Shown: one piece after another, positions 1 to 52,960 of the stretch
How positions within the stretch are numbered: position 1 is the stretch's first letter
Layout of the letters: every line of letters begins with the position of its first letter
Source of the DNA: a virus
Taxonomy: Duplodnaviria; Heunggongvirae; Uroviricota; Caudoviricetes
Strand: one strand, 5' to 3'
Length of the DNA stretch: 64,000 nt
IMG/VR virus record: IMGVR_UViG_3300029998_000014
Position numbers and translations under genes: made by a program
Notes under the pieces: generated by a model
What the model was told of the DNA's origin: nothing
Seen by the model: the letters and a program-made list of their open reading frames with translations, nothing else
Databases searched by the model: none

Positions 1-24
1 CAATTACGCCATTGGGGAATTTAG

Positions 25-113
25 TGGGGGCGGAGGGCTTCGAACCCCCATGTCTCACGACCGCTATGGTCTAACCTATATTTAGCTGCGGCTACCAATT
101 TCGCCACACCCCC
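25..113 (-). tRNA. Type II tRNA with long variable arm. The anticodon loop reads AUAUAGG, so the apparent anticodon is AUA (Tyr-like, unusual A34).
   Basis: Reverse complement folds as follows: acceptor GGGGGTG/CGCCCCC; 3-bp D stem with loop containing GG; anticodon stem CTAA/TTAG with 7-nt loop ATATAGG; 22-nt variable arm with CCAT/ATGG stem; T arm GGGGG-TTCGAAG-CCCTC; discriminator A. No encoded CCA. Confidence 0.6.
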
Positions 114-129
114 GATTGTTTTTTTTTTG

Positions 130-202
130 TGATCTGACTGGGATTTGAACCCAGAACCCCCGCCTTAAAAGGGCGATGCTCTACCAGTTGAGCTATCAGA
201 TC
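130..202 (-). tRNA. tRNA-Lys(TTT)
   Basis: Reverse complement GATCTGA TA GCTC AACTGGTA GAGC A TCGCC CTTTTAA GGCGG GGGTT CTGGG TTCAAAT CCCAG TCAGATC A. Perfect cloverleaf; anticodon TTT. Confidence 0.85.
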
Positions 203-356
203 TTGTAAATAACCACTTGGTTGTAGCGACACTACCAAGTGGTTTGTTGCCGAAACAACAACGGTCCTAAACCGTAAGTGGACTCTGTTGGTTTTGATCC
301 AACCTCTCATGCTCTTCAGGCATACGCTTTCACCAGATTAGCTTAGAGTCCTTAAA

Positions 357-1100
357 TTATATTTTATCCCATTCATCATCAGACAAACTATTTATTTCTT
401 TCTTTGAAGAAGGTATATTAAAATGTTTACACCATTTTCTAATAGCATTATCTGATCTATTGTATAATTTACCAATATTAATAAATGTTTCTGTGCGAAC
501 TAAAGTTTTTAAATATTCACGAGTTATACCAAGTTCATCGTAAAAATCATTAGCTATTCGTTTAGCAGAACAACTTAAACATAAACCACTTACAGAAGAA
601 CTTGTTATAGTATTACCACAAGAATTACAATATAATGCATCTATAACTTTATCTTTAACATTTTTACCTTTATAATTATCAGTAAAAGCATGACAGTTTG
701 GACATAATAATTTAAGATTATTTAATTCATTATTAGTTTTAATACCATCTATGTGGTGTGTTTCTAATGGAATAGGTTCTCCCATTCATTTAGTATTATC
801 ACAACATTCACATTTATGTTCTTTTAGATTATTTTTTAATAATTTATCTCTTAACTTACTTGTTTGTGTATATGCTGAATCTTTACAAAAGATTGTATCT
901 AAAGTGTACACATTCTTAGTTTCATTTGAAGAATTTCTTTTAAAATGAATTGTGCTAATTTGATGTTTTTTTATCTTAGTTTGAATTGTTTCATAATTAC
1001 CAGCAGTTAAAGGCAACCCATAATATCTACACACATCTGCAAAAGAATAACTTTCTTTTACAATTTTTTCTAAATTTTCTTTTGAATATTTGTTTTCCAT
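357..1100 (-). CDS. HNH endonuclease with CxxC zinc finger. Continuous only if the in-frame TGA at 786-788 is read as sense.
   Basis: Track ORFs 786..1136 and 357..785 lie in the same frame and are separated only by TGA (plus-strand tca at 786-788). The joined protein reads ...KCECCDNTK-W-MGEPIPLETHHIDGIKTNNELNNLKLLCPNCHA, i.e. the HNH motif spans the TGA. Likely start at MENKYSKE (1100). Confidence 0.7.
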
Positions 1101-1206
1101 AAATTGAACTATTATATTAATAGTACAAAGATACAAAAAATTTTCGAAAGTGCAAAATATATTTAGTTAAATATTGTTAATAGCAGAAAGAAACCACCGA
1201 AGTGGT

Positions 1207-1743
1207 TTATTCAAATAATCCTGAAGGTGTATTATGAAATTTATTATATAAAACATCTAATGTATAGGATTCATTATCTTTATTAACAAATAATAATTCT
1301 TCATCAATTATTGTCGGAGTGTAATTCTCCTTTAATACTTGTAAAAATGATTTAGTTCTTGTTACTGTGCCCCCAAATCTTGGATCATCTCCATAATTAA
1401 TGATATAAGTTCCTGACGATGGTGTCATACTAGCAAGAACATCATTATGAACATATTCTGATCTACCATCATGAGTTATTGTTTGACTAAATTCTTCAAG
1501 TAAACCTCTAATCATATCATTACTGATATTAAATTCATTAGCTCCTGATATTTTATATTTATCCTCATCATTCATAGATTGACTACTCATAGTAATTGTT
1601 TGAACTTTTCCAAACAATCTACGCATGCTTTCAACAACTCCAAAAAGAGGTCTTGGACCTCGTCCATTTAATGCATCTTCAAACCATTCTAAAGACTGCA
1701 TTAATACTTTATCACCTACTTTATATCGCTCTGTACCTCTCAT
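1207..1743 (-). CDS. Paralog family A, member 1 (unknown function)
   Basis: Shares N-terminal KVGDxVxxxSLxWF, mid FNISNDMIxG and C-terminal ENYTPxIDxxxLxFxxxDNxSYTL motifs with the next three ORFs. Confidence 0.6.
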   Translation of the reverse strand: MRGTERYKVGDKVLMQSLEWFEDALNGRGPRPLFGVVESMRRLFGKVQTITMSSQSMNDEDKYKISGANEFNISNDMIRGLLEEFSQTITHDGRSEYVHNDVLASMTPSSGTYIINYGDDPRFGGTVTRTKSFLQVLKENYTPTIIDEELLFVNKDNESYTLDVLYNKFHNTPSGLFE

Positions 1744-2098
1744 ATATTTCTTTTAAACTATATGCATCATTATTATCATTTATAAAATACAATCCACCTT
1801 CATCAATAAGTGGTGTATAATTCTTTTCTACATATTCAGGAAAAGATGAAGCTATTCCTTCAATCATATCATTACTAAAATTCCAATGACGTGGATCATC
1901 TACTAAGTGATATAAAGGTATATATGCATAACCTGCTTCATTATTTGAAATTACTTGTTCTTTACCAAAAAACTGACGCATATCATAAATTAATCCACCT
2001 TCAACAGCTACATGATTTTCCATCATTTCATCAAACCAAGCTAATGATTTTAGTCTAACAACATCACCAATTTTATACTTCTTTAAAGAACTCATCAA
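1721..2098 (-). CDS. Paralog family A, member 2
   Basis: KIGDVVRLKSLAWFDE ... WNFSNDMIEGI ... KNYTPLIDEGGLYFINDNNDAYSLKEIYERY. Overlaps neighbours by about 25 nt. Confidence 0.6.
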   Translation of the reverse strand: MMSSLKKYKIGDVVRLKSLAWFDEMMENHVAVEGGLIYDMRQFFGKEQVISNNEAGYAYIPLYHLVDDPRHWNFSNDMIEGIASSFPEYVEKNYTPLIDEGGLYFINDNNDAYSLKEIYERYRAI

Positions 2099-2531
2099 AT
2101 ATTTCTTTTAAAGTAAATGAATTATTATCTTTATCAGTAAATGTTAAAGTTTCACCATCAAGAAATGGAGTATAATTCTTTTCAAGATGTTCAGGAAATT
2201 TATTTGGAGTAATAACATCCCATGAATATTGATCAGGATCAATTATATTTTCATGTCTATGTATTAATTCAGAAGTTTTTATATTATCAATCATTTGATC
2301 AGTATACGTATATTCATTATCACTACCACCACTGCAACCTGCTAAAACATATCCACAATAATTTGTATCAACATGAGTAATAACTTGAATTGTTCCAAAA
2401 TAAGGTCTCATATCACTAGCTAAACCTAATCTAACATCACCTCTATCGTCATGTACATCAAACCAATCTTTAGATTTCAAATGTACACATTGTCCTACTT
2501 TATACTTAACTGTTGGTAGTGAATCTCTCAT
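2073..2531 (-). CDS. Paralog family A, member 3
   Basis: KVGQCVHLKSKDWFD ... YTDQMIDNI ... KNYTPFLDGETLTFTDKDNNSFTLKEIFDEF. Confidence 0.6.
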   Translation of the reverse strand: MRDSLPTVKYKVGQCVHLKSKDWFDVHDDRGDVRLGLASDMRPYFGTIQVITHVDTNYCGYVLAGCSGGSDNEYTYTDQMIDNIKTSELIHRHENIIDPDQYSWDVITPNKFPEHLEKNYTPFLDGETLTFTDKDNNSFTLKEIFDEFFKEV

Positions 2532-3075
2532 ATAACTGTGTTAAAGTAAATGAATTATTTTCATTATCTGTATAAGTTACAACTCCATCATAAGCAAATG
2601 GAACAAACTTCTCAACATATTGTATAAATGCTTTAACGTGAATTGAAAGACTGTTTGAAAAACCTAATAATCCACTAAAATCAGTAGTACCTCTCATTCT
2701 ACCTCTCAATTCTTGTAATGAAAGTTGTTCATACATACTTAAAGCACTTGACATACTTGAAGTACCTGAAGTTAAACTAGATCCTATGGTATTATACATA
2801 CTTACTAATCTATCATATCCATTAGTTGTAATTGGCATATCATAATACTTATCAACCATATCTATTGAGAAATACCAACCTTTAGAATCACTTTCAATAT
2901 TAAATAATTCAACACCTCTTAATTGAGATCCTCCAATTTTTACAGATTTTATAATATGTTCTTTACCAAAATATTGTTCCATATCATTAGTCAATATTGG
3001 CAAGAAATCTGCTTTTTTCTCATCATACCATTCTTTAGGTTTTAATAAAACCTTCATTCCTTGTTTTAAAATCAT
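2506..3075 (-). CDS. Paralog family A, member 4 (divergent, longer)
   Basis: GMKVLLKPKEWYDE ... FNIESD ... FVPFAYDGVVTYTDNENNSFTLTQLYERF. Confidence 0.55.
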   Translation of the reverse strand: MILKQGMKVLLKPKEWYDEKKADFLPILTNDMEQYFGKEHIIKSVKIGGSQLRGVELFNIESDSKGWYFSIDMVDKYYDMPITTNGYDRLVSMYNTIGSSLTSGTSSMSSALSMYEQLSLQELRGRMRGTTDFSGLLGFSNSLSIHVKAFIQYVEKFVPFAYDGVVTYTDNENNSFTLTQLYERFTTNS

Positions 3076-3128
3076 TTTCCATCTTCATTTAACTTGGGTA
3101 ATCATCCCAATTTTACCTAATTTATTTG

Positions 3129-3200
3129 TAAGAGCAGAGAGAATTGAACTCCCGACATCTTCCATGTAAGGGAAGCGTTCCACCACTGAACTATGCTCTC
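3129..3200 (-). tRNA. tRNA-Val(TAC)
   Basis: Reverse complement GAGAGCA TA GTTC AGTGGTG GAAC G CTTCC CTTACAT GGAAG ATGTC GGGAG TTCAATT CTCTC TGCTCTT A. G1-U72 wobble; anticodon TAC. Confidence 0.8.
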
Positions 3201-3258
3201 GGTTGTATTGTAGACAGTACTATCTTGTAGAACCAATACTAATTTTATATCTACTTTG

Positions 3259-3332
3259 TGTTCACAACAGGACTTGAACCTGTGACCCCCAACTTATCAG
3301 GCTGGTGCTCTAACCAACTGAGCTACGCAAAC
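3259..3332 (-). tRNA. tRNA-Ile(GAT)
   Basis: Reverse complement GTTTGCG TA GCTC AGTTGGTTA GAGC A CCAGC CTGATAA GTTGG GGGTC ACAGG TTCAAGT CCTGT TGTGAAC A. Anticodon GAT. Confidence 0.8.
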
Positions 3333-3424
3333 AGTTAAACAGTAACTATTCTTAGACTTTCGACATCCTTAATAGCTTTCCAATGATAACTAATTGCTGT
3401 TTACCAATTAGCTTCTTCGAAGAG

Positions 3425-3498
3425 TGGAATCTGTGGGTTTCGAACCCACCACCTATTGCTTGCAAAGCAATCGCTCTAGCCAAATGAGCTAAGACCCC
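3425..3498 (-). tRNA. tRNA-Ala(TGC)
   Basis: Reverse complement GGGGTCT TA GCTC ATTTGGCTA GAGC G ATTGC TTTGCAA GCAAT AGGTG GTGGG TTCGAAA CCCAC AGATTCC A. G3-U70 Ala identity pair present; anticodon TGC. Confidence 0.85.
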
Positions 3499-3663
3499 GA
3501 TTTAAAGTTTTTTGTGCCACGGTGATTGTATGCCAAACTGGTAAAAACTTAATAATACCCATGCGCCAAATACGATGCGCGAGACAAGTATGCATAAACT
3601 ATCAAACTTTCGTTATTAAGTTCCTAGGCCTTCTCAATCTACGTTCAGTTGTTCCTACTGGTT

Positions 3664-3879
3664 TTATTTAATTATTTCAAGTTCTTCTGGAGAATAACCA
3701 TATCTTAATTTAGAAGGTAACCATCTAACATTCCATTCATCACCTTCACCATCAGGATATACTAAATCTTCAACTATACCTATACACTTTCCAAATTCAT
3801 CAACATGATCTTTACAATCATTTGCAATTAATCCTCTTTTAAAGGATTTAGTCATTTTAACTATATCTCCTGATTTCAT
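3664..3879 (-). CDS. Hypothetical small protein (KOW-like GDIVKM and WNVRW motifs)
   Basis: The track ORF 3664..3954 overlaps tRNA-Cys. The internal ATG at 3877-3879 (MKSGDIVKMTKS...) avoids the overlap. Confidence 0.45.
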   Translation of the reverse strand: MKSGDIVKMTKSFKRGLIANDCKDHVDEFGKCIGIVEDLVYPDGEGDEWNVRWLPSKLRYGYSPEELEIIK

Positions 3880-3895
3880 AATTTTATTTATTTTG

Positions 3896-3968
3896 AGCCC
3901 ATACCAAGATTCGAACTTGGGCGTGCGATTTTTGCAGAATCGAATGTTAACCACTTCACCATACGGGC
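3896..3968 (-). tRNA. tRNA-Cys(GCA)
   Basis: Reverse complement GCCCGTA TG GTG AAGTGGTTAA CAT T CGATT CTGCAAA AATCG CACGC CCAAG TTCGAAT CTTGG TATGGGC T. Anticodon GCA; discriminator U73 as expected for Cys. Confidence 0.8.
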
Positions 3969-4448
3969 TTATCTATTATTAATAATATTACTAATGGTTC
4001 CTTTACTACTAATATTATATTTTTCCATAATTTCTTTATAAGTATGCCCTAAATTTCGGTATGCTTTAATTTCTAAAACTAATTCATCAGAATATTTTTT
4101 ATTAGCATTAGATGCAATTCTAATTCTTTCTTCTTTAGGTTTATCCATCATATTATCACTATATGATCCAATTTCAATATTATCCCAAGAATTATTTAAT
4201 CCGTTACCATCTAAATGTCTAACTACTATATCTTCGTTAAAAATAATTTCTCCAAATTTTTGATATGCTTGTAATCTATGTACTTTAACTGGAATATGTT
4301 TTTCATTTAATCTAATATTAAATTTTTTATAATTTTTATTATAAATAGTTCCTGTTAAAATTTTTTCTTTAGGATTTAAAATATCACCATTTATAGTTAT
4401 TTTATATCCTTTTTCAATTGCTAATAATTCATTTTTACTTCTTTCCAT
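3969..4448 (-). CDS. HNH_3/AP2-type homing endonuclease
   Basis: Motif VHRLQAYQKFGEIIFNEDIVVRHLDGNGLNNSWDNIEIGSYSDNMMD. The track ORF N-terminus overlaps a tRNA-like gene, so the start is placed at MERSKNELL (ATG 4446-4448). The gene sits between tRNA genes. Confidence 0.75.
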   Translation of the reverse strand: MERSKNELLAIEKGYKITINGDILNPKEKILTGTIYNKNYKKFNIRLNEKHIPVKVHRLQAYQKFGEIIFNEDIVVRHLDGNGLNNSWDNIEIGSYSDNMMDKPKEERIRIASNANKKYSDELVLEIKAYRNLGHTYKEIMEKYNISSKGTISNIINNR

Positions 4449-4452
4449 ATTG

Positions 4453-4529
4453 TACCTACTCCTGGGATTGAACCAGGCTGTCACCAAATAACCTTTCAAC
4501 AAGATATAAGCTTGAGGGTATAAGTAGGC
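4453..4529 (-). tRNA. Atypical tRNA-like gene; anticodon unresolved (candidate hairpin CAAG-CTTATAT-CTTG gives UAU). No normal D arm.
   Basis: Good acceptor (GCCTACT/AGTAGGT) and T arm (CCTGG-TTCAATC-CCAGG, 77 nt), but the internal region does not fold into a canonical D arm plus anticodon arm. Confidence 0.4.
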
Positions 4530-4559
4530 ATAAAAAATCTCTTTATTCACTTTAAGCAG

Positions 4560-4920
4560 AGTGGAATAATTATATTGACTTAGGTCATAACGAAGGCTTT
4601 TCTGCGAACACTAACCATATCATAACTACATTTACCAAAACATTCAACCACTGCTATGGTTTATAACCTACGTACTCAACTTTCGTCCTTACCCCTTATT
4701 GGGTTGGGTGTCTCCCCCTGGTTACCGTTTTGCTTCAATTAAAGAGATTTTATTTGTTCAACTTAGAGTAGTCACGGCTACCTCTGATCTCTAAGTCTAA
4801 TACTAACAGTGGCAAAATGTAGCTCGACCCTAGTTAGTTTTGTTAATTGGTATGGGCAATAACTTTATAAGTTAAGACTACAACCCCATCTTTGATGGTT
4901 TATTCTATCGTAGCTAATAA
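4560..4920. ncRNA. ORF-free, GC-richer block; candidate structured RNA of unknown class
   Basis: No ORF of 60 aa or more on either strand across ~360 nt in a densely coded genome. Local GC is clearly above the genome average, and tRNA genes flank the block. Confidence 0.25.
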
Positions 4921-4936
4921 TAAATAAACCTAGTTG

Positions 4937-5009
4937 TACTCCAAGCTGGACTTGAACCAGCGACCCTCGGTTTAGAAAACCGATGCTCTATCCACTGAGC
5001 TACTGGAGC
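4937..5009 (-). tRNA. tRNA-Arg(TCT)
   Basis: Reverse complement GCTCCAG TA GCTC AGTGGATA GAGC A TCGGT TTTCTAA ACCGA GGGTC GCTGG TTCAAGT CCAGC TTGGAGT A. Anticodon TCT. Confidence 0.8.
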
Positions 5010-5014
5010 ATTTT

Positions 5015-5500
5015 AAAAATGAGTAACGGGAGGGACAATTACACGCATGTTATCCACGGGACTACACCTACATCTTTTCGTTAGGGATATCTGGACTTAA
5101 TTCCTCATTCTAAGTCAGCATTGGGTTCCCCTCTTACCTGACTCACCGACCATTCTCGGATGTTACTCATTTAATTTTTAAAAATATTGATGTGCTATTA
5201 CGCCAAAGGGATTTCAGTCCTTACCAGTTACGGGGTGACCTCCAACTTACCTTACCACATTAAATTCCAACTTGAATTGGTTTATCAACGTAGTCTCGTC
5301 CCACTCTTTAGATGATTGCTGCTTCCAAGCCAACATTTCAATATTTTATATTTTAAAAAAGATATACTAATTGCGATTGTATATTATAGAAACATCATCG
5401 ACGATAATAAATTACCATTCTAGATATAACATTCACCAATACTTTAAATACGGAGGAATTCCAGAGTCACTTCCCTCATATACAATTAGAGCCCTCTGGA
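5015..5500. ncRNA. ORF-free, GC-richer block; candidate structured RNA of unknown class
   Basis: About 480 nt with no ORF on either strand, flanked by tRNA-Arg and a small membrane-protein gene; locally GC-rich segments are present. Confidence 0.25.
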
Positions 5501-5501
5501 C

Positions 5502-5717
5502 CTAGACTGTTTCTTCTTTTAATTTTTTATTCCATTTTAAAAATCCTCTAATATTTAAAACTGTAAATGCTAAATACATTATAACTATTGAAATCATATT
5601 CCAGAATAATATTATTCCAAGAATACTTCCAATTGCTCCAAGTATGAAGCCAATTATTCTCTTATTACTTATCAAATAATAAGCGTATAAGTTTAAAATC
5701 ATTAAAATCCAATCCAT
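5502..5717 (-). CDS. Small integral membrane protein (2 TM helices)
   Basis: 71 aa, hydrophobic; sequence ...IIGFILGAIGSILGIILFWNMISIVIMYLAF.... Confidence 0.5.
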   Translation of the reverse strand: MDWILMILNLYAYYLISNKRIIGFILGAIGSILGIILFWNMISIVIMYLAFTVLNIRGFLKWNKKLKEETV

Positions 5718-5920
5718 TATCTATTTGTTTAAGTTTTAAAAAGGGTTGGGTATATAGTAGAACTTTAATCAACTTATACGTTTATGAATTACACATAATT
5801 GCTATCTACCACCCTTTATTTTAACATCCCTCTCTGCCGCAATCAAGTTTCGGCTGTCTTGTGCTTTGTTTGAACCATTATCAATTGCCGATTTATGGTC
5901 ACAGAGTTGAGGATATTTAG

Positions 5921-5993
5921 TTGCGAAGGAGGGAATTGAACCCCCGACCTCAAGGTTATGAGCCTTGCGAGCTACCACTGCTACCACTTCGCG
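5921..5993 (-). tRNA. tRNA-Met(CAT), possibly initiator-type (C1xA72 mismatch)
   Basis: Reverse complement CGCGAAG TG G TAGC AGTGGTA GCTC G CAAGG CTCATAA CCTTG AGGTC GGGGG TTCAATT CCCTC CTTCGCA A. Anticodon CAT; 1-72 unpaired as in bacterial tRNA-fMet. Confidence 0.7.
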
Positions 5994-6003
5994 ATATATT
6001 TTG

Positions 6004-6076
6004 TATAGATGGTGAGACTCGAACTCACGACCCCTTGCTCCCAAAGCAAGAACGCTACCAACTGCGCCACATCTAT
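6004..6076 (-). tRNA. tRNA-Pro(TGG)
   Basis: Reverse complement ATAGATG TG GCGC AGTTGGTA GCGT T CTTGC TTTGGGA GCAAG GGGTC GTGAG TTCGAGT CTCAC CATCTAT A. Anticodon TGG. Confidence 0.8.
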
Positions 6077-6079
6077 ATT

Positions 6080-6298
6080 TTAATTATTGAATATTTCACA
6101 AATTAATTCTTCAGAAATCCATTCTTCAATTACATCTTTACTATCATTTTCAGTAATAAAAAATATTTCATGATCTTCTATAGCATCTTTTAAATATCTT
6201 GAAACTTTATTAAGATCTGATATGCTTGAAGACTTAAAAATAAGTCTTGGTGTTTCACGATTACTTATTCTAAGTAAATAATATTTTTTTTCTATCAT
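6080..6298 (-). CDS. Hypothetical protein
   Basis: 72-aa ORF co-directional with its block; no recognisable motif. Confidence 0.4.
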   Translation of the reverse strand: MIEKKYYLLRISNRETPRLIFKSSSISDLNKVSRYLKDAIEDHEIFFITENDSKDVIEEWISEELICEIFNN

Positions 6299-6318
6299 AA
6301 TTAATTTATCAATATTTT

Positions 6319-6391
6319 GTATTCGGACGGGGAATCGAACCCCGCTTGCTGGGATGAAAACCCAGATTACTAGCCGCTATAAGACCCGAAC
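6319..6391 (-). tRNA. tRNA-Glu(TTC)
   Basis: Reverse complement GTTCGGG TC TTA TAGCGGCTAG TAA T CTGGG TTTTCAT CCCAG CAAG CGGGG TTCGATT CCCCG TCCGAAT A. Glu-type D arm; anticodon TTC. Confidence 0.75.
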
Positions 6392-40624: not shown

Positions 40625-41041
40625 TTAAAAATTATCGTACCACCATTTTTTGGTGAACACATGACTACCACAAATTAACCACAATAAAGTTATTCCAAAT
40701 AAAAGTATAGATGATATAATACCACATATATAAGAACATTTAAAAATAATTGGAAGTTCTATCTCTTTGGTTTTATTACCAATATATGAATCTTTAAGTT
40801 TTATTTTATTAAATTCTTTACGAGGAACATCAATAAATTCACCAAAATCATCTTTATATGTAACAAAAATTTGTAAATCATTGTCACCAAGATCCCACAT
40901 TCCAGTAACAGTACCTTTTTGATGAATAATCGTACCTTGACAACTTGGATTATAACAAAAATATCCAAATGAAAAACACATAAAAAAGAATATTGCAATA
41001 AATATTCCTTGTCTTACGTAATCTAATATTTTAATTATCAT
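40625..41041 (-). CDS. Membrane protein
   Basis: 138 aa, N- and C-terminal TM helices. Confidence 0.45.
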   Translation of the reverse strand: MIIKILDYVRQGIFIAIFFFMCFSFGYFCYNPSCQGTIIHQKGTVTGMWDLGDNDLQIFVTYKDDFGEFIDVPRKEFNKIKLKDSYIGNKTKEIELPIIFKCSYICGIISSILLFGITLLWLICGSHVFTKKWWYDNF

Positions 41042-41121
41042 ACTATCTAGATTTAATGATGTTAGTTATCATCACTGCAGCTATCGCTACAATGATGATG
41101 ATTCCTAAGGATAATTGCATG

Positions 41122-41442
41122 TTACAATTTATTAATGAATTTGTAATAAGAATCAAAATTAGAATTACCTCGATCAGGAGACATATATTCACATTCCCAA
41201 CCAGCTTTGTGATAAAGAGATTCGAAATCTAAATATTTTTTATCATATAAATGTCTTTCAAATGATGAACGATTTTCATATTCAGTTTGATCCGGATGAT
41301 TAAAAGCTTTAGTAATGATTTCTTTCTTTGTAATTGTAAAAGACCCACCATTATATCTTTCTTCAATCAATTGATTCACTGAATCAATGATATAATCAGG
41401 TAAAATACGTTTAACCTGATTTGGTCTAATTGGTTCAATCAT
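41122..41442 (-). CDS. Hypothetical protein
   Basis: 106-aa ORF. Confidence 0.45.
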   Translation of the reverse strand: MIEPIRPNQVKRILPDYIIDSVNQLIEERYNGGSFTITKKEIITKAFNHPDQTEYENRSSFERHLYDKKYLDFESLYHKAGWECEYMSPDRGNSNFDSYYKFINKL

Positions 41443-41595
41443 TTTACTTGTAAGATATTAAAGTATCAGACTTTGCATTCCATGCTTTACGCATAATTTG
41501 CTTTTCATTTTGAGATGAGGTTAATATTTTACCTGCTTTAACCTTTTTGTGTTTAGTAACCACTTCGGATAATACAATAGTTTTTTCCATTTTTA

Positions 41596-41665
41596 ATTTG
41601 TTTTGAGTTTATACATAATGTGTTTCGTCCAGCCTCTTCAGTAAACTTTTTAGCCTCTTCTGGAT
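41596..41665 (-). promoter_or_regulatory. Conserved upstream element, copy A (putative phage promoter/leader)
   Basis: Plus strand TTTTGAGTTT...TTTCGTCCAGCCTCTTCAGTAAACT; lies 5' of a small minus-strand ORF (ATG 41593). Confidence 0.45.
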
Positions 41666-41671
41666 GAGGTG

Positions 41672-41706
41672 AATAAAAACGCAGCGGACGTTATAACCGC
41701 TGCGTT
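41672..41706 (-). terminator. Candidate rho-independent terminator
   Basis: Minus-sense CGCAGCGG-TTATAACGT-CCGCTGCG followed by TTTTTATT. Confidence 0.45.
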
Positions 41707-41795
41707 TAAATCAAATAATAATACTAATATACTTCACATTTCACAATGTTCTGTATAAATCCAATAAAAATTTACAAATACTAACTATGGCTTAA

Positions 41796-42284
41796 TTATT
41801 TTAAGAGAATTTTAGCAAATGATGTATCATTCTTCATTTTCTCAATGAGTTCTTTAGAAGACATTTTCTTGGCTTCATCAAGTAATTTATTTTGTTGATC
41901 GACAACACCTAAGCTTGTTTTAGCATCCGCAGACATTGCTTTTAATTCGGATATAACAAATGTACTTAGTTCTTTAGGAATTTGTTTACATGTTGAATCA
42001 GTTGTAACATAATTCATAGCAGTTCCACCACCAATGATTAACAACGTATCTTTTTTACTTGGTATGAATGCATGAGCAAGTAAACAAATTGAGAATATTG
42101 GAATTATCCAACGTAAAGGTTTACTACAACGATCATTTAAATCTTCATCACTTTCGATAAATGAAACCAGCTTCAATATAACATTGAGTGCTAAAAGAAT
42201 TCCGAAGATAATTAATACTCCTAAAAGTACATGTTTGAAACCATCGACTACTGTGAGCCAATAAAAGAGTTTAATATAATCCAT
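41796..42284 (-). CDS. Membrane protein
   Basis: 162 aa, two N-terminal TM helices. Confidence 0.45.
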   Translation of the reverse strand: MDYIKLFYWLTVVDGFKHVLLGVLIIFGILLALNVILKLVSFIESDEDLNDRCSKPLRWIIPIFSICLLAHAFIPSKKDTLLIIGGGTAMNYVTTDSTCKQIPKELSTFVISELKAMSADAKTSLGVVDQQNKLLDEAKKMSSKELIEKMKNDTSFAKILLK

Positions 42285-42291
42285 TTTGTTT

Positions 42292-42600
42292 TTATTTATT
42301 TAATAATTTATTCATATATAAATCAAAATTTTCTTTACATGAAGTGAGAACTCCAACTTGATATGGTAATTCATTAGAAATATGAATATTATAATTTTTA
42401 TCTTCTATTTTTAATAGTTCAGAATTTATAAATTCAGCAATACCTTTTGGAAGCCAAGCAGATGCTCTAATATGAGGTTTATCTTTAAATAAAACTTCAC
42501 CTACAATTTGATCACTTTCAGGTACATTTGGATTTTGTGATTCATATACTCTAATTAATATATCACATTCATAACTTTTATTTAATGTAATTTTATTCAT
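42292..42600 (-). CDS. Hypothetical protein
   Basis: 102-aa ORF. Confidence 0.45.
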   Translation of the reverse strand: MNKITLNKSYECDILIRVYESQNPNVPESDQIVGEVLFKDKPHIRASAWLPKGIAEFINSELLKIEDKNYNIHISNELPYQVGVLTSCKENFDLYMNKLLNK

Positions 42601-43020
42601 ATTTTAAGTTTTGAAATAAGTGTGAAAGGTTGCACCTTTTATAAGAATTACCAACTGTAGCGCGTACACCTAATGTACCTATCTTACACACTAATTAGAT
42701 TAAAAGAGTTTCCTCCCCATATTTCTATGGTTTGGAAACTCGAAAGAGTTTACTTTAAATAAAGACCGGTTAACATAGCAAATACAAACATTACTTCACA
42801 AAAATGAAATAATCCTATAAATATTACGAAAATCTCGAATTCTTTAAGTACGACACGATGTAACCAATTAAATAAATGGGTTATTATTGTATGAGCGATA
42901 ACAATCAACAATACTCCAAATGCGGGTTCGAATGTGATATGCATTATTTAAATAGTGTTAAGATAAATAATCCAACTGACACACACATTATTACAATAGC
43001 AATAGCTTTAAATAGTTTCA

Positions 43021-43197
43021 TTACTTACAAGTTTTAGTACGATAAATTGCACATGTTTTACCTAACATATCAAAGTTTTCTTCGGATGTAGCAAGCTCTC
43101 TTCTTTGATAAGCTGCTTGTCTTGGAGTTAAACCTGATATTATTTCTACTTTTACATTGTTACCTGTTATGGCGATGATTGATTTAGTTTTTGACAT
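43021..43197 (-). CDS. Small hypothetical protein
   Basis: Start placed at MSKTKSIIAITG (ATG 43195-43197), immediately downstream of conserved element copy B. Confidence 0.4.
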   Translation of the reverse strand: MSKTKSIIAITGNNVKVEIISGLTPRQAAYQRRELATSEENFDMLGKTCAIYRTKTCK

Positions 43198-43280
43198 AAT
43201 CTTATTTGTTTTTGAGTTTGATATGTTTAAACATATTTCGTCCAGTCTCATCAGAAACTATTTTATACTCTACTGGTTGA
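43198..43280 (-). promoter_or_regulatory. Conserved upstream element, copy B
   Basis: GTTTTTGAGTTTG...TTTCGTCCAGTCTCATCAGAAACTATTTTATACTCT. Confidence 0.45.
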
Positions 43281-44738
43281 GTTAATAAAAAAGAGAGTAC
43301 ACACTATATGTCCAAATGCGACGATGTGTACTCCCTTAGTGTTTGTTATCAAAATTAATATGATAACCATTGTTTACTTCGCGGTACATCACCGATAAAA
43401 TCGGTGAATCTAACCGGGAAGCATTCTTTCGTAATAAAGAGCTTCACCCTTTTGCTCCCATAGCCAGTTTCAGGACGATATTACGTTGGCTTGTTTTTGA
43501 CACCAGCAATTAGCACGGCATCGGTTTTAGTATACCTATCTTTTATTAATTTGTCTTCAAGGATTGACAGAATGGATGCTATTTGTACATATAGCCGTTA
43601 TACCTTACACTCGGAAGTTCCACACTTTCATCGGAGGATTGCGCACAGGTTTTCATTATACTTATTTGCAGTTAGTATTATACTGTTTAAAGGCATCAAA
43701 CCACCATACTGAATCTCTTCTTGATTAGTTATTCAGATATGCTTCTTATATAAGAGATTATATTATTTATAACGTTATTATATAGAGAATATACATATCC
43801 AACCGTTTATCTGATGAAAGTTGCTTGATGCTAAGAGTTTAAAGTATATTTACAATAATTGCAGCTAATAAAAATCCAGCTGCGGCAGCATATAAATGCG
43901 ACATAATATGATTTTCTTTATCAAAACATATTAATCCCATAAATATATCAAATGCTAAACATAGACTGAGTATAATTACCATTAGCTTATGTATTTAAAC
44001 ATTAATATTCCACAATCAATAAGTAAAGAAAGCATTACATATCCCATTCGTGATTCTTCTTGCCATTTGATAATATTGAATTGTAGTCCAATAAATGAAC
44101 CTAACAAGTAAAAGATAATCCATGGTGCAATGTATAATAGAGTTTTTTCAGTTTTAGTCATGTTTTTTGATTTTACATTCTATTGATATAAACATTGCAC
44201 ACAATTCTACAAATAAATAGAAGATTAAGAACGGTGATAAACAAATTACTATTGCTTGAGTTTTAGTTAACATTATAGATCTTCATTTTTAAATTTGGTG
44301 ATGAAATTATCTAACCATTTAAATCGGATATTAAAGCGAACTCTTTTTATGAGTTTATCGCATAACATACAGATAAAAACAATTAATAATAATCCAATCA
44401 TAAATATCACTATTAATGTATTTATTCCAGGAATAAACCACATAAAATCACATTCAGCTTCATATTTACTAAATATATCTAAATACTTCGGAGATGCAAT
44501 TCTATATAAGACACTACACAGAACAATGGATAATAAATATCCAACAATTAATAAGAATAGTACCATGATTATTGTAATGGAATGTGAAACTTAATACACA
44601 ACATAAGTACAATCCCACACATTATAAATCCACACGCAAAACCTCCAAGTAATACACCTGTAAGATCTTTTTCAATATAATATTTTCTTGTTAGAAATAT
44701 ATCGAAACATAATAAAAGTAATAATAATATTATCATGA

Positions 44739-45011
44739 TTATTTGATTTTAAATTTATCAATTGGATACTCGTACGATGTTATATCATCATCATACACAT
44801 AAACCTTGATTTTATCCCGAGATTTAATGTGTGTGATGTAATATGTGTAAACCAATTTATGTTTTGGTTTAGTTATTGATTCAACTTGTGTAGCAATTGT
44901 GGGTTTTGTAGCTTGATGCATATGCCCACTTCTTGCTTCACAAGATGTTAATACTCGTAAAAGAATAATAACCAAAACTATTACAATAATATTAACAATA
45001 ATTTTAATCAT
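44739..45011 (-). CDS. Small membrane/lipoprotein-like protein
   Basis: 90 aa; N-terminal TM/signal ending in a Cys (LTSC). Confidence 0.4.
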   Translation of the reverse strand: MIKIIVNIIVIVLVIILLRVLTSCEARSGHMHQATKPTIATQVESITKPKHKLVYTYYITHIKSRDKIKVYVYDDDITSYEYPIDKFKIK

Positions 45012-45280
45012 TATTCTTTAGGTCTAATTGAGTTAACACTAATACTATCGAATCCAACAAACGTTTGTTCTTTAAGTATTTGTACAGCTTCAATTGGAGT
45101 ACGAGCACTAATGAATGTAGAACGTTTTAGAAACTTACCAGAAAGATATCCTTTGTAAGTTATTGTGTAAGTTTTTGATAATACTGGAGCATGTCTTCTT
45201 GATTGAGAATTACATGCAGTAAAAGAAACAATTAATACTATTGCTACAACAATATTAATAATAAAGATTTTTAATTTCAT
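45011..45280 (-). CDS. Small lipoprotein-like protein
   Basis: 89 aa; N-terminus MKLKIFIINIVVAIVLIVSFTAC. Confidence 0.4.
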   Translation of the reverse strand: MKLKIFIINIVVAIVLIVSFTACNSQSRRHAPVLSKTYTITYKGYLSGKFLKRSTFISARTPIEAVQILKEQTFVGFDSISVNSIRPKE

Positions 45281-45281
45281 T

Positions 45282-45503
45282 TTAAACTGATTTTTCTAAA
45301 TGAATAGCAATGTTAACAATTAATAATAGTATTATAATACCATATAATATACATATCTTTGGTAATTTAAAGTATGTAAATACATCAACTATAAGAGCTA
45401 CTAAAATTGCAACCATTACCACTATTAAAATGATAACGATTGTAATTAATATTATGTTTAGCATTTGATTAATTTTTATGAATATTAGATGCAATATGAT
45501 CAA
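45282..45503 (-). CDS. Small membrane protein
   Basis: 73 aa, two TM helices. Confidence 0.4.
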   Translation of the reverse strand: MIILHLIFIKINQMLNIILITIVIILIVVMVAILVALIVDVFTYFKLPKICILYGIIILLLIVNIAIHLEKSV

Positions 45504-45687
45504 ATAAAAATATTGCCATTATTATTAAACCTATTGGTCAAATTAATGATGTTGTAAAAATGCTCCGATATTTTGACCGTTATTTAAATACATACTACCA
45601 GGAAAATTATATTCTAATACAAGTAATAATATTGGACATAATATTAATCCAATAATATAAATAATGATTAATGTTATCATAATAAAT

Positions 45688-45780
45688 AAGTTTTTGAGTT
45701 TGACGGGAGTGATGAGCTCCCCGTTTCGTCCTAGTCTCTTCAGAAACTGATGTTATACTCTCCTAGGCTGAGTCATATTG
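45688..45780 (-). promoter_or_regulatory. Conserved upstream element, copy C
   Basis: TTTTTGAGTTTG...TTTCGTCCTAGTCTCTTCAGAAACTGATGTTATACTCTCC. Confidence 0.45.
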
Positions 45781-46047
45781 TTCTTACATCACTGTAATAC
45801 TAAATATAGTTGGGATAGAAATAATGATAATTAGAAAGAAATACAGACTGATGAGGAATGTATATTGTAAAAAAGACTCATGATAGGCTCCGGACTATTA
45901 TGCACCGTATGCAACACCGTCGGACGACGGTTAATCAAATCATAAGTCTTTTATGAAAGTAAACATAATTGAACCCGGGATATCTGTACCGTACTAAAAA
46001 CCATCAGATCTAATGATTTTTTCAATTATGTTTATGAGAGAGTATTG

Positions 46048-46275
46048 CTACTTTTTATGTTTATCTATAGTATTTATCATTTGATAAAACTTATAATAGA
46101 TTATACCTATTGATGCAACAAATAATACAAATGGCCAAAATAATGACATCATTCCATAACCCAATGCATAATCAGCAGGATCATCACATTCTAAAACATT
46201 TGGAAAGAACTTTGTGAAAAGCATAATAATGAATGGGAATAACGGAATTCCAATGAGATAAATTGTTATTATCAT
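46048..46275 (-). CDS. Small membrane protein
   Basis: 75 aa, two TM helices. Confidence 0.4.
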   Translation of the reverse strand: MIITIYLIGIPLFPFIIMLFTKFFPNVLECDDPADYALGYGMMSLFWPFVLFVASIGIIYYKFYQMINTIDKHKK

Positions 46276-46339
46276 AATTTAATAAGTTTAATAAATCTCC
46301 TAATCACCTTACGGCTTTCGGAGACTCAAAAGTGTGTGA

Positions 46340-46669
46340 TTAAATACCTAATTCTTTTAGTTTACGATAAACTGTTCGTTCACTTAATCCAAGTTTTTCA
46401 GCAATTACTTTATTTGTATAATAACCTAGACTCTTAAGAATTATAATATTCTCAGATTCAGTTCTAACACCTGTAATTTCAAGCTTATTTATTGAACTAA
46501 TTATTGTAAAACTTGAAAGATCAACAGCATTTGTAATAGCTAATAACTCTTTTACAGTTATATTAGATATAATCTCTAAAGTTTGTGATTTGAAATCAAC
46601 CTTAATTTTTTCCATTATTACCTGGTTTATAAGATTTATAAACTTTGTGTAATGTGTGACGTGCATCAC
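46340..46669 (-). CDS. HTH DNA-binding protein
   Basis: C-terminus KVIAEKLGLSERTVYRKLKELGI (helix-turn-helix). Confidence 0.5.
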   Translation of the reverse strand: MMHVTHYTKFINLINQVIMEKIKVDFKSQTLEIISNITVKELLAITNAVDLSSFTIISSINKLEITGVRTESENIIILKSLGYYTNKVIAEKLGLSERTVYRKLKELGI

Positions 46670-46689
46670 TAGATGATGCTAAATATACA

Positions 46690-46800
46690 GTTTTATTCAT
46701 TGTGATATGTGTTTTGAGTTTTACGAGAGTTTTAGAGTTTCCTCTTATTCTCTCGTTTCGTCTAGATCTCATCGGAAACCAATGTTATACTCTCTCTAGC
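46690..46800 (-). promoter_or_regulatory. Conserved upstream element, copy D
   Basis: GTTTTGAGTTTT...TTTCGTCTAGATCTCATCGGAAACCAATGTTATACTCTCTC. Confidence 0.45.
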
Positions 46801-46874
46801 TGAGTTGTATGTTATCATTTTACAATGACTAATACCAACGTTCAAAATTACTTAAATGAATAATATATATTGTT

Positions 46875-47168
46875 TTATTTTTTAGAATTATGATTATAAA
46901 CTTGTTGCATTTTCATAGCTTTATCAAGTTCTTTTTGAATAATTCCATAATATATTGGTTGAGTTGTAGTAAATATATATTTACCTCGTGATATATTTGT
47001 GATTAATTCACAAGATTTGAGAAGATTAAATATACTTGACGAATAAGGACATTTAGTTTCTTTTAAAATTTTTGTTAATTCAATTTTACTAAAAGAATCA
47101 ATTTCTTTTGATATGATATTATTAACACATGATATAACTAATTTAGCATTTTCTTCAGATGTTTTCAT
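46875..47168 (-). CDS. Hypothetical protein
   Basis: Start placed at MKTSEEN (ATG 47166-47168), directly 3' of conserved element copy E (partial, 47169-47230). Confidence 0.4.
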   Translation of the reverse strand: MKTSEENAKLVISCVNNIISKEIDSFSKIELTKILKETKCPYSSSIFNLLKSCELITNISRGKYIFTTTQPIYYGIIQKELDKAMKMQQVYNHNSKK

Positions 47169-47728
47169 TATGATGTTTTTGAGTTTGAGCATCGCGTAGG
47201 ACCTAAACTTATACCAATTGTATAAATCTATTGTAACTGAATTGTTACAATATGCACTCTGTTAATAATATTACATAATCAATCCAAATATGTTTTGTCA
47301 TATGTAGGGTTTTCAATGTAAAATTTGGTTGGAATGATTATTGGGATTATTTTTGGAGTGGTTGAGAGTCGTTGTCAGTGCTCGTTTACTCTCAATCAAC
47401 CCAAATATTTTTTTAAATAATCATCTCTATCTTAATACCACATTAGTTATGATATCATTTCGTGTTTGGATATAGCATTCTATGGGGAAAAATGGCTCAT
47501 ATTCTTCTAATCTCATCTTGTATGGATATACTTTATGTTCATGTCCAAAGACATCTTCGAACTTATTGCATGATATCCAAGTGCCTTTCATACATTTCCA
47601 TGTGCTCACAATTATACTCAATATTTGGTAATACATAATTATACTAAGTTGAATACTATAATATATAATTACGTAGTAAAAAAAAGAGAAGTACAAAAAT
47701 GTACTTCTCTTATAACATTGTTAAAATG

Positions 47729-48226
47729 TTATTTCTTTTTGGCTGGTTTAGCCGTATCAACTGTAACATCCTCAGTATCAACTGATTCGTTAACAAGTTC
47801 AAAGATAGGCATATTTTTTGCAACCTCTTTGATTTCTTTACCCTCGGCGATTTCGTCAGCAGTACGGAAAGCATTAACAGTTACAGTTTCGTGGTCTACA
47901 ACTTTGATAGTTTTACCTAACAAGTCCTTAACACTCAAATTTAAACCGTTGTCAATCACGGCACGTTTTGATTGTTCGCCACTTGTGAAATAAATTCCCA
48001 TTAACGTATTAGCACCAACCACGGCAACTGAACCGTTAACAAGTGCAGAGATACCGAGCCACGGTTTTCCACCCTGTGAAATAGCTTCCATTTCAACAAC
48101 GGCGTCCAATTCAATTACAGTATCTTTCGCATAAGTATCGCCACCAATTGAGGCAAAACGAGCAGGAATTTCTGAGGTTGTTAAAATACGTTTACAACCT
48201 GGAATTTGTCTTTTTTCAATATTCAT
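47729..48226 (-). CDS. Hypothetical protein; first gene of the minus-strand block next to the divergent region
   Basis: 165-aa ORF with Lys-rich C-terminus. Confidence 0.5.
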   Translation of the reverse strand: MNIEKRQIPGCKRILTTSEIPARFASIGGDTYAKDTVIELDAVVEMEAISQGGKPWLGISALVNGSVAVVGANTLMGIYFTSGEQSKRAVIDNGLNLSVKDLLGKTIKVVDHETVTVNAFRTADEIAEGKEIKEVAKNMPIFELVNESVDTEDVTVDTAKPAKKK

Positions 48227-48299
48227 AATGATAGAGTTTTGTTTGTTAGTAGTTTACTTTCCATTCAAGACCTGCTGGGGGTAGAAGAGATGACTGTCC

Positions 48300-48766
48300 A
48301 CCCACTCGATTCATAAAAATAAAAAAATTTTTTCAAAAAAAATTATTCAGAACTTCCTAAAAATTATTTTCAATACTTTTTATATCTTCTACCTTTTAAT
48401 AAAATTAATTTTACTACGCGCGCGTTCGTATATATAGTAAACTTTTGCGTTTGATACAACAAATTTTGCGTATCAATATGTAAAGTTTTACGGACAGCCA
48501 CATTAAGTATAGAATTATTAAGTATATATTAAGTATATGGAAACCTTGTAATTCACTGTGTCACAATAACTTAACCGTTTTCATACAAACTCGAGCGTAT
48601 CATTTGAAAATTCCGACGTATCATTTGAGATTTTTTGCGTATCATTTGGAGTTATCTTATTGACTATTAACCGATTACAAATGATATGCTCGAAGTAATT
48701 GTATATCAGTGACTTAACATTTTTTAACTATGTGTATAGTATTTTTGTCACACAAATTTCTTATCT
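48300..48766. promoter_or_regulatory. Divergent intergenic region with A/T tracts and iteron-like repeats (candidate origin / early promoters)
   Basis: ATTAAGTATA x3 (48502-48540). GCGTATCATTTG x3 direct (48595-48648), one inverted copy (48678-48689), and further GTATCA/TGATAC copies at 48450-48475. A8/T8 tracts at 48310-48345. Confidence 0.45.
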
Positions 48767-52887: not shown

Positions 52888-52960
52888 ACCTTTGTAGTGT
52901 AATGGTTAGCACACAAATCTTCAAAATTTGTAAGTGTGAGTTCGAGTCTTACCAAGGGTG
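52888..52960 (+). tRNA. Opal-suppressor tRNA, anticodon UCA, tRNA-Trp-derived (tRNA-Trp(UCA))
   Basis: ACCTTTG TA GTGT AATGGTTA GCAC A CAAAT CTTCAAA ATTTG TAAGT GTGAG TTCGAGT CTTAC CAAGGGT G. The anticodon loop is C-U-UCA-A-A. A1-U72, G73, the D loop and the T loop UUCGAGU match the E. coli tRNA-Trp architecture. Confidence 0.9.

Follow-up and report, generated by a model that had tools for sequence, protein, structure and literature searches.

The window analyzed here, the whole 64-kb stretch of phage DNA in IMG/VR record IMGVR_UViG_3300029998_000014, carries a repeated element at five sites, which we named copies A–D and site E (Table 1; coordinates of these sites are on the minus strand). 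The genes downstream of copies A–D encode small proteins of unknown function and one HTH protein. The original prediction had described a conserved element of about 90 nt before at least five minus-strand genes, and all five listed sites were confirmed on that strand, with coordinates that were right to within a few bases. Four of them are full copies, A–D; the fifth site, E, has just UC-AAACUCAAAAAC and an upstream AGTTT, and only its last ~14 nt are in common with the full copies. The 12-mer AAACTCAAAA[AC][AC] gave five exact occurrences in the window, exclusively at sites A–E and exclusively on the minus strand. A core CTGA(A/T)GAG...CGAAA was found in A, B and C, with CCGATGAG in its place in D. 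The similarity among the four full copies is far above chance, with Rfam E-values of 3.1e-09, 2e-07, 2.3e-05 and 0.026 for A, B, C and D, respectively.

Table 1. Coordinates of the repeat sites, their parts and leaders, the adjoining hairpins and the Pistol ribozyme in the window (ORF, open reading frame).
Feature	Coordinates	Strand	Description
Copy A	43282-43215	-	refined coordinates; RF03152 match 43283-43215, 67.6 bits; next ATG 43197
Hammerhead A	hairpin 43282-43267; stem I AGUUU 43259-43255 with AAACU 43219-43215; core CUGAUGA 43254-43248; stem II and loop GACUGGAC 43247-43240; GAAA 43239-43236; stem III 43236-43221; C17 43220	-	own parser; predicted cut 43220/43219
Leader after A	43219-43198	-	AAACUCAAAAACAAAUAAGAUU, 22 nt, then ATG 43197 of a 58-aa ORF
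Copy B	45773-45697	-	refined coordinates; RF03152 match 45774-45697, 59.4 bits; next ATG 45680
Hammerhead B	hairpin 45773-45757; core CUGAAGA 45743-45737; stem II loop GACUAGGAC 45736-45728; stem III 45724-45703; C17 45702	-	own parser; predicted cut 45702/45701
Leader after B	45701-45681	-	AAACUCAAAAACUUAUUUAUU, 21 nt, then ATG 45680 of a 45-aa hydrophobic ORF
Copy C	41669-41606	-	refined coordinates; RF03152 match 41670-41607, 50.0 bits (permissive scan); next ATG 41590
Hammerhead C	hairpin 41669-41654; stem I AGUUUA/UAAACU (6 bp); core CUGAAGA 41641-41635; stem III 41623-41613; A17 41612	-	own parser; predicted cut 41612/41611
Leader after C	41611-41591	-	UAAACUCAAAACAAAUUAAAA, 21 nt, then ATG 41590 of a 48-aa ORF, also called by JGI
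Copy D	46805-46717	-	refined coordinates; RF03152 match 46806-46736, 36.2 bits (permissive scan); next ATG 46700
Hammerhead D	hairpin 46805-46789; core 46775-46769; long stem III 46756-46723 (7 bp plus inner hairpin); A17 46722	-	own parser; predicted cut 46722/46721
Leader after D	46721-46701	-	AAACUCAAAACACAUAUCACA, 21 nt, then ATG 46700 of a 32-aa ORF
Site E	47259-47173	-	only last ~14 nt in common with full copies; ATG 47168
Hairpin upstream of A	43335-43287	-	terminator-like, GC-rich, GGGAGUACACA...UGUGUACUCUC and U-run; dG -17.7 kcal/mol; ends 5 nt before A
Hairpin upstream of C	41707-41675	-	terminator-like, GC-rich, AAACGCAGCGG...CCGCUGCGUUU and U-run; dG -14.8 kcal/mol; ends 6 nt before C
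Pistol ribozyme	24066-24005	-	RF02679, 41.6 bits (gathering score 34.5)

The full copies resemble a known self-cleaving RNA. The whole window was scanned against Rfam 15 (4227 families), and copies A and B are members of RF03152, the RAGATH-1 hammerhead, both scoring above its gathering score of 56.3 bits. A narrower Rfam scan over positions 42550–47750 agreed with the whole-window result. The name RAGATH-1 reportedly goes back to Weinberg et al., in Nat Chem Biol in 2015. The repeated motif CUGA(A/U)GAG...CGAAA corresponds to the hammerhead catalytic core, its variable base being core position 7. Judged from sequence and pairing, A–D are very probably pseudoknotted type-I hammerhead ribozymes of the RAGATH-1 type.

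All four full copies have the same order of parts: a 5' hairpin, a linker, the 5' strand of stem I, the core, stem II, GAAA, stem III, residue 17 and the 3' strand of stem I. The 5' hairpin has 4 bp and a loop of 8–9 nt; its strands are generally ACUC/GAGU and in copy C CCUC/GAGG, where C-G replaces A-U at the hairpin base, a compensatory change. The linker is of the type UAUAA(A/C)AU, corresponding to the family linker UAUAAAAU, with a variant CUAAAAAG in C. Stem I pairs AGUUU with AAACU over 5–6 bp across the copies, and stem II is one G-C pair around a loop of 6–7 nt in all four. Stem III is closed by A15.1-U16.1 and comprises 7, 6, 3 and 7 bp in A, B, C and D; its sequences are unrelated among the copies and all are nonetheless paired. 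Residue 17 is never G (C, C, A and A, in the same order). The hammerhead core, C3-U4-G5-A6-N7-G8-A9 together with G12-A13-A14, is present in A (CUGAUGA) and in B and C (CUGAAGA), each with GAAA, and the sole core base that varies among these three is N7, which is free to vary in the hammerhead consensus. A 5-bp pseudoknot joins the loops of stem II and the 5' hairpin in every copy and would be the tertiary contact by which stems I and II are aligned, the pairs being CCAGU/ACUGG in A, CCUAG/CUAGG in B, UCCAG/CUGGA in C and CUAGA/UCUAG in D.

The pairing was examined for covariation in a MAFFT alignment of 34 family members, limited to the 5' hairpin and the pseudoknot. Stem III varies in length and could not be aligned by MAFFT, and stems I and III rest on our own parser and on the comparison of orthologs. 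In the hairpin and pseudoknot cells of the 34 copies, 99.3% of the pairs are standard, changes on both sides occur in 8 of the 9 pairs, and none of 500 shuffles reached the observed values. For the pseudoknot alone, pairing is 100% over the 34 sequences, with all five pairs (5/5) changed on both sides. Pairing drops to 25–42% when the partners are slid by 1–3 columns. Because a pseudoknot cannot be encoded in a covariance model, this test is independent of the Rfam score.

Using an architecture-specific pattern, we found 75 loci in IMG/VR viral contigs, nearly all of one layout. A loose core pattern (GTTTCTGANGAG...ACGAAA) was discarded as a search tool, its matches being mostly chance occurrences within coding DNA. 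In the genome collection, filter-passing RAGATH-1 copies were present in Alistipes, Parabacteroides, Lachnospiraceae and a few other assemblies. All copies in the window have the same stem I and the same leader, whereas other multi-copy phages have a different stem I in each copy; a scan of IMG/VR for other hammerheads with the AAACUCAAAA leader returned chance matches only. A subgroup of loci (L060, L065, L071, L081, L096, L102, L103, L109 and L112) has a perfect RAGATH-1 5' half and core, followed after GAAA by no obvious stem III/stem I closure and by a conserved terminator-like hairpin, aauccacuugcuugugaaaguagguggauuuuuu, instead. This subgroup may represent a variant or split architecture.

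Related contigs allow the copies to be compared between phages. Among GenBank phages, no DNA or protein relative of the window was found, and scans of IMG/VR and metagenomes with the neighboring 885-aa protein gave nothing, or the same phage only; JGI metagenomes contain near-identical copies of the window. Relatives were found via homologues of the 162-aa protein encoded between A and C. In contig L118, in which this protein is 73% identical, four RAGATH-1 hammerheads occur in the same order along the aligned region, and the short contigs L123 and L124 carry those hammerheads that fall inside them. Above-threshold RF03152 scores for orthologs in these three contigs range from 57.7 to 67.6 bits. 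Ribozyme A, its leader and the ATG are 100% identical in all three, against 72–86% identity in flanking coding DNA, and are thus under purifying selection. Copies B and C are nearly unchanged in L118 (B ortholog at L118:3350–3426, 61 bits; C orthologs at L118:8103–8166, 49 bits, and L123:1935–1997, 51.9 bits). The counterpart of D (L118:1722–1803, 57.7 bits) has a canonical CUGAAGA core and a changed pseudoknot (UUCCAG/CUGGAA), and its 9-bp stem III is unrelated, yet neither the fold nor the leader differs. This turnover of sequence at the D site with pairing kept points to selection on RNA structure. The core is intact in three of the four copies in the window and in all four in L118.

The comparison with L118 also revealed where genes have been exchanged. 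A 243-aa and a 118-aa gene have been gained or lost exactly at the junction between the terminator and ribozyme C, and they bring their own hairpin, which again abuts ribozyme C. A 100-aa gene has been gained or lost exactly at the junction between leader C and the gene that follows it.

The original prediction had also placed each copy directly 5' of a gene start and ended it in a conserved leader, and both points are borne out. The 3' end of the repeat (AAACUCAAAAAC...) is a conserved mRNA leader, and the distance from the predicted cut to the first ATG is 21–22 nt in 4/4 full copies. The 32-aa ORF that follows D overlaps the start of the gene for a 91-aa HTH protein (46615–46340). The released leaders are A-rich, start with (U)AAACUCAAAA and have no Shine-Dalgarno motif. 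Such a motif precedes 6 of the 88 ORFs in the window, with a background of 9%, and the 20 nt before the ORF starts contain 47% A vs. a window average of 35%. The phage probably initiates translation without Shine-Dalgarno pairing, as in Bacteroidota.

The spacing was analyzed across the family after removal of the window copies and collapse of near-duplicates (n = 34), with ORFs of at least 40 codons and cuts located by our own parser. In these other phages, an ORF starts 20–35 nt after the cut in 14 of the 34 RAGATH-1 copies, vs. 6.4% for random positions. The distance from cut to start peaks at 21–31 nt across the family.

Terminator-like hairpins abut copies A and C on their upstream side (Table 1), and none was found directly upstream of B and D. 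Among family members, a hairpin with a T-run lies directly upstream in 12 of 72 cases, compared with 1.6% of random positions, an enrichment of about 10-fold. The hairpin before A is the 3' end of a non-coding stretch of ~560 nt (43845–43284, minus strand) located immediately upstream of the ribozyme. This stretch is structured (fold z = -3.19, with 0 of 100 shuffles folding as well), strongly conserved (L118 4760–5700; L123 340–900; L124 1–635), and has undergone at least one compensatory double change, from GUUAUCA/UGAUAAC to GUCAUCA/UGAUGAC. Its counterpart in L118 has an insertion of ~330 nt beside a duplicated ACAGU..ACUAACUG.AAAUAAGU motif. Membership in RAGATH-7 was considered for this region and rejected, since the recurrent partial matches of 20–30 bits are too weak relative to the gathering score of 111.8. 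It could be an undescribed large phage RNA. Upstream of B, the non-coding stretch 45959–45775 (minus strand) is 91% identical to L118, with coding flanks at 72–86%; within it, a U-run comes after a long hairpin, AAAAGACUUAUGAU...AUCAUGAGUCUUUU, and the fold z-score is -2.2.

A second self-cleaving ribozyme class occupies the same position elsewhere in the window. A hairpin with a T-run at ~24110–24068 (minus strand) precedes a Pistol ribozyme. Its cut is predicted between G24010 and U24009, a position based on the Rfam consensus linker and on pistol structures, which lies 24 nt before ATG 23985 of the next long ORF. The 5' module of this ribozyme, ACUC-loop-GAGU-AUAAA, is closely similar to the RAGATH-1 5' hairpin with its linker. 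In Pistol cleavage, a G supplies the nucleophile (PMC4604425).

We propose that A–D are RAGATH-1-type hammerheads that process the transcript between genes and insulate gene blocks, dividing a long RNA into parts that would be translated separately. The probability we assign to this proposal is about 0.8, a figure that blends identity and role; for the role, transcript processing and insulation, the balance tips only slightly in favor. The four copies sit between blocks of small accessory genes, all read leftward. Each ribozyme would fold as the long RNA is made and cut itself 3' of residue 17. Self-cleavage in this phage would be expected from hammerhead chemistry, the standard form of which would give the upstream product a 2',3'-cyclic phosphate end and the downstream product a 5'-OH end. 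Such 5'-OH ends are predicted at 43219, 45701, 41611, 46721 and, for the Pistol ribozyme, 24009. The next gene block would be freed from the RNA before it, whether another cistron, a large structured RNA or a hairpin of the terminator type, and it would keep a short, uniform, unstructured leader starting with AAACUCAAAA and without a Shine-Dalgarno motif. The ribozymes could then serve as natural insulators at the junctions of gene cassettes, and cleavage may affect both translation and RNA stability.

Several observations weigh against this proposal. The Rfam scores of C and D, both from a permissive scan, fall below the gathering score. Copy D departs from the hammerhead core, its sequence being CCGAUGA with U4 changed to C; core position 4 is sensitive in classical mutagenesis, and D may be slow or dead. 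Stem III of C is only 3 bp long. Minimum-free-energy folds of single copies miss the hammerhead fold, and the z-scores of A, B and C are unremarkable. No hammerhead was found in the neighborhood of the homologous gene in L119 (49% protein identity) or L122 (42%), so the arrangement is not deeply conserved. The family statistics depend on our own parser, and the binomial p of 8e-9 for the enrichment in spacing is optimistic, the sequences being partly related. The product of the glmS ribozyme with its 5'-OH is a target of RNase J1 in Bacillus, and any benefit of a 5'-OH end would therefore depend on the host.

Some of these points have a likely explanation. The low score of C is likely due to its short stem III and variant linker, and that of D to the C4 change and a misplaced 3' end of the Rfam match, which stops at 46736, inside the long stem III, and was thus probably set at an internal AAACU. 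A CCGAUGA core with C4 is also present in an unrelated phage copy (L107:9814–9899, plus strand). The C4 in D may be a tolerated natural variant rather than the mark of a dead copy. The failure of minimum-free-energy folding is expected for pseudoknotted ribozymes and gives no support. On the basis of their anatomy and orthologs, we accepted C and D as divergent RAGATH-1 members.

Site E has retained the AGUUU, UC junction and leader AAACUCAAAAAC of the full copies, the motif lying at 47186–47175. Its layout consists of two predicted hairpins, then GGUCCUACGCGAUGCUC-AAACUCAAAAAC, 6 nt and the ATG. In the alignment, 18 unrelated nt stand where the full copies have their core and stem III. Neither CUGAnGA nor GAAA is present, and no Rfam family matched E in the whole-window scan or in the scan of 42550–47750; by these tests, E is not a decayed or alternative ribozyme. 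The fold z-score of E is -2.67, and the element is 92% identical to L118:1420–1506, though the downstream gene differs. Its first hairpin differs from that in L118 by one double change (U-A to C-G) and one single change (G-C to G-U), a pattern that fits an RNA structure on the minus strand. L118 was the single informative relative found, and E is absent from one more distant relative. E may be a processing site or a 5' untranslated region that gives the same leader by another route.

The original prediction interpreted the repeat as a phage-specific promoter with a conserved leader or translation signal recognized by a phage factor. A gene does follow every copy and GAGTATAAAAT looks like a -10 box, but the -10-like TATAAAAT is the family-wide RAGATH-1 linker and occurs also in unrelated phages and bacteria. 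The repeat body (~65–90 nt) instead fits the self-cleaving ribozyme model, and its compensatory base-pair changes fit selection on RNA pairing and not on a DNA motif. Copies A and C begin 5–6 nt after a hairpin with a T-run, too close for either to have its own promoter. Nor were sigma-70-type promoter matches enriched, with 57 such sites at 41000–48300 vs. 54 ± 7.5 in shuffles, as counted by a sigma-70-type tool whose coverage does not extend to Bacteroidota-type or phage-polymerase promoters. The motif TAGTATAAT near 47.6 kb was likewise dropped as a candidate phage promoter, being not enriched (25 found vs. 23 expected). At site E, which is conserved in L118 and has the leader but no ribozyme core, there could be a promoter or processing site that shares this leader. 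A promoter is conceivable only at this core-less element, and for the repeat as a whole we regard this explanation as very improbable. It is hardly plausible, too, that the copies have no present function and persist as inactive relics or as selfish repeats between genes. The non-consensus core of D, the weak stem III of C and the resemblance of E to a copy that lost its core would agree with decay, but A and its leader are invariant in three relatives whose flanking coding DNA is 72–86% identical, the D counterpart in L118 has kept every pairing despite its divergent sequence, and the core is intact in most copies here and in all of those in L118.

A different function could lie with the upstream RNA, the ribozymes mainly trimming read-through so that the upstream mRNA, or the structured non-coding RNA of ~560 nt before A, would have a defined, hairpin-protected 3' end; the position relative to the downstream ATG would then be secondary. 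This reading is compatible with transcript processing between genes, and several features agree with it: A, C and the Pistol ribozyme abut terminator-like hairpins, such hairpins are ~10-fold enriched upstream of family members, and the stretch before A is structured (z -3.19) and conserved, with at least one compensatory change. However, B and D have no hairpin directly upstream, the 3' end after cleavage would be the ribozyme itself and not the hairpin, and the invariant 21–22 nt to the ATG, together with the family peak at 21–31 nt, indicates coupling with the downstream gene. As the main function, we therefore consider it unlikely. The stem I strands AGUUU/AAACU are the same in all copies, so that a released 5' end could dock at the ribozyme at its own 3' end, and other multi-copy phages have a copy-specific stem I. 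Released segments could then be rejoined, by the reverse reaction of the ribozyme or by an RtcB-type ligase, into circular or spliced RNAs. This possibility was raised by Perreault et al., who searched for such products and found none (PMC3088659). The shared leader is more simply explained by a constraint on translation, and rejoining seems extremely improbable. A related and highly speculative idea is that the stem I and leader (UC/AAACUCAAAA) shared by all ribozymes and by E would let 5'-OH ends dock in the ribozyme of their own or another segment, so that segments could be circularized or joined in trans in a programmed RNA rearrangement instead of being simply cut; the segments between ribozymes measure ~1.0 kb (D–B), ~2.5 kb (B–A) and ~1.6 kb (A–C).

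Processing and insulation by hammerheads would bear on an open question, the role of self-cleaving ribozymes in phages, and this locus is well suited as a clean test in nature. A single genome has four hammerheads and a Pistol ribozyme in equivalent positions, each following a hairpin or the end of a gene and lying 21–24 nt before a start codon. The phage starts translation without Shine-Dalgarno sites, and cassettes have been swapped exactly at ribozyme junctions. Together, these features make the idea of natural insulators directly testable. For annotation, a likely mislabel as promoter or repeat is corrected to a known RNA family.

Other features of the window concern the phage at large. 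With genes for NAMPT, ribonucleotide reductase, a GroEL-like chaperonin and glutathionylspermidine synthase, alongside a tmRNA and many tRNAs, the window looks like part of an uncultivated jumbo phage; in addition, a 213-kb contig carries one of the window's proteins. The tmRNA (14815–14407, minus strand, 107 bits) has the tag peptide GNKTISFARTAFMAAA, and 11 tRNA genes form a cluster at 24–6391 (minus strand). A tRNA at 52888–52960 (plus strand; Rfam tRNA, 62.9 bits) has the anticodon UCA and is labeled 'SeC' by ARAGORN; it may be an opal (UGA) suppressor, hinting at stop-codon recoding in part of the phage. In an apparent intergenic region after a terminator at 47711–47684, an ORF of ~54 aa (KCMKGTWISCNKFEDVFGHEHKVYPY...) at ~47640–47427 (minus strand) has a protein sequence that is conserved in L126, L127 and L118; it was not called by JGI.

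In their anatomy, the four copies correspond to RAGATH-1 (RF03152) in the 4-bp 5' hairpin, the UAUAAAAU linker, the 5-bp stem I, the CUGAnGA core, the one-bp stem II with its pseudoknot, GAAA, stem III and the cut after residue 17, as well as in the phage or prophage setting. They differ in the sub-threshold scores of C and D, in the C4 and unusually long stem III of D, and in the single stem I and leader for all copies, which was unseen in other multi-copy genomes. The Pistol ribozyme (RF02679) shares with them the window, the slot and the 5' module, i.e., a 4-bp hairpin with a pseudoknotted loop followed by AUAAA. Its catalytic core and its cleavage site in a G/U linker differ, and it belongs to a separate ribozyme class.

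Clustered hammerheads that flank phage or prophage genes and cleave in vitro were described by Perreault et al. in 2011, who proposed that they process long phage transcripts into gene-length mRNAs (PMC3088659). HHphage, a hammerhead of the haloviruses HF1/HF2, lies 13 nt before a start codon and its cleavage site coincides with a mapped 5' end, and the same authors noted a functional hammerhead whose one-bp stem II is stabilized by a pseudoknot (PMC3088659). As in those phages, several ribozymes flank single genes or short gene blocks here. The hammerheads of Perreault et al. are mostly of type II with other tertiary contacts, whereas those in the window are of type I, with a hairpin-loop pseudoknot, a spacing of 21–22 nt and a uniform leader.

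RiboJ offers a functional analogy rather than a family relationship. It is also a hammerhead that, just before the translation start, strips variable upstream RNA and standardizes the 5' leader, and in E. coli it raises protein 2–10 fold and transcript ~2-fold (PMC6206723). RiboJ is synthetic, has its origin in a plant satellite RNA, and has a designed hairpin and a Shine-Dalgarno site after it, whereas the leaders here are natural, A-rich and without such a site. For type-I hammerheads in the 5' untranslated regions of fungal and plant RNA viruses, the ORF that follows is reportedly translated only if the ribozyme cleaves itself (bioRxiv 10.1101/2024.05.16.594327); those systems differ in their eukaryotic hosts, cap-independent initiation and RNA genomes.

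Copies A–D are therefore a new set within a known kind of ribozyme, with a processing role already proposed by Perreault et al. (PMC3088659). Three aspects go modestly beyond the literature consulted: the invariant spacing of 21–22 nt with its family-wide peak, the presence of two ribozyme classes in the same slot of one genome, and, as a third, the core-less element E and the sharing of one stem I and one leader within this lineage.

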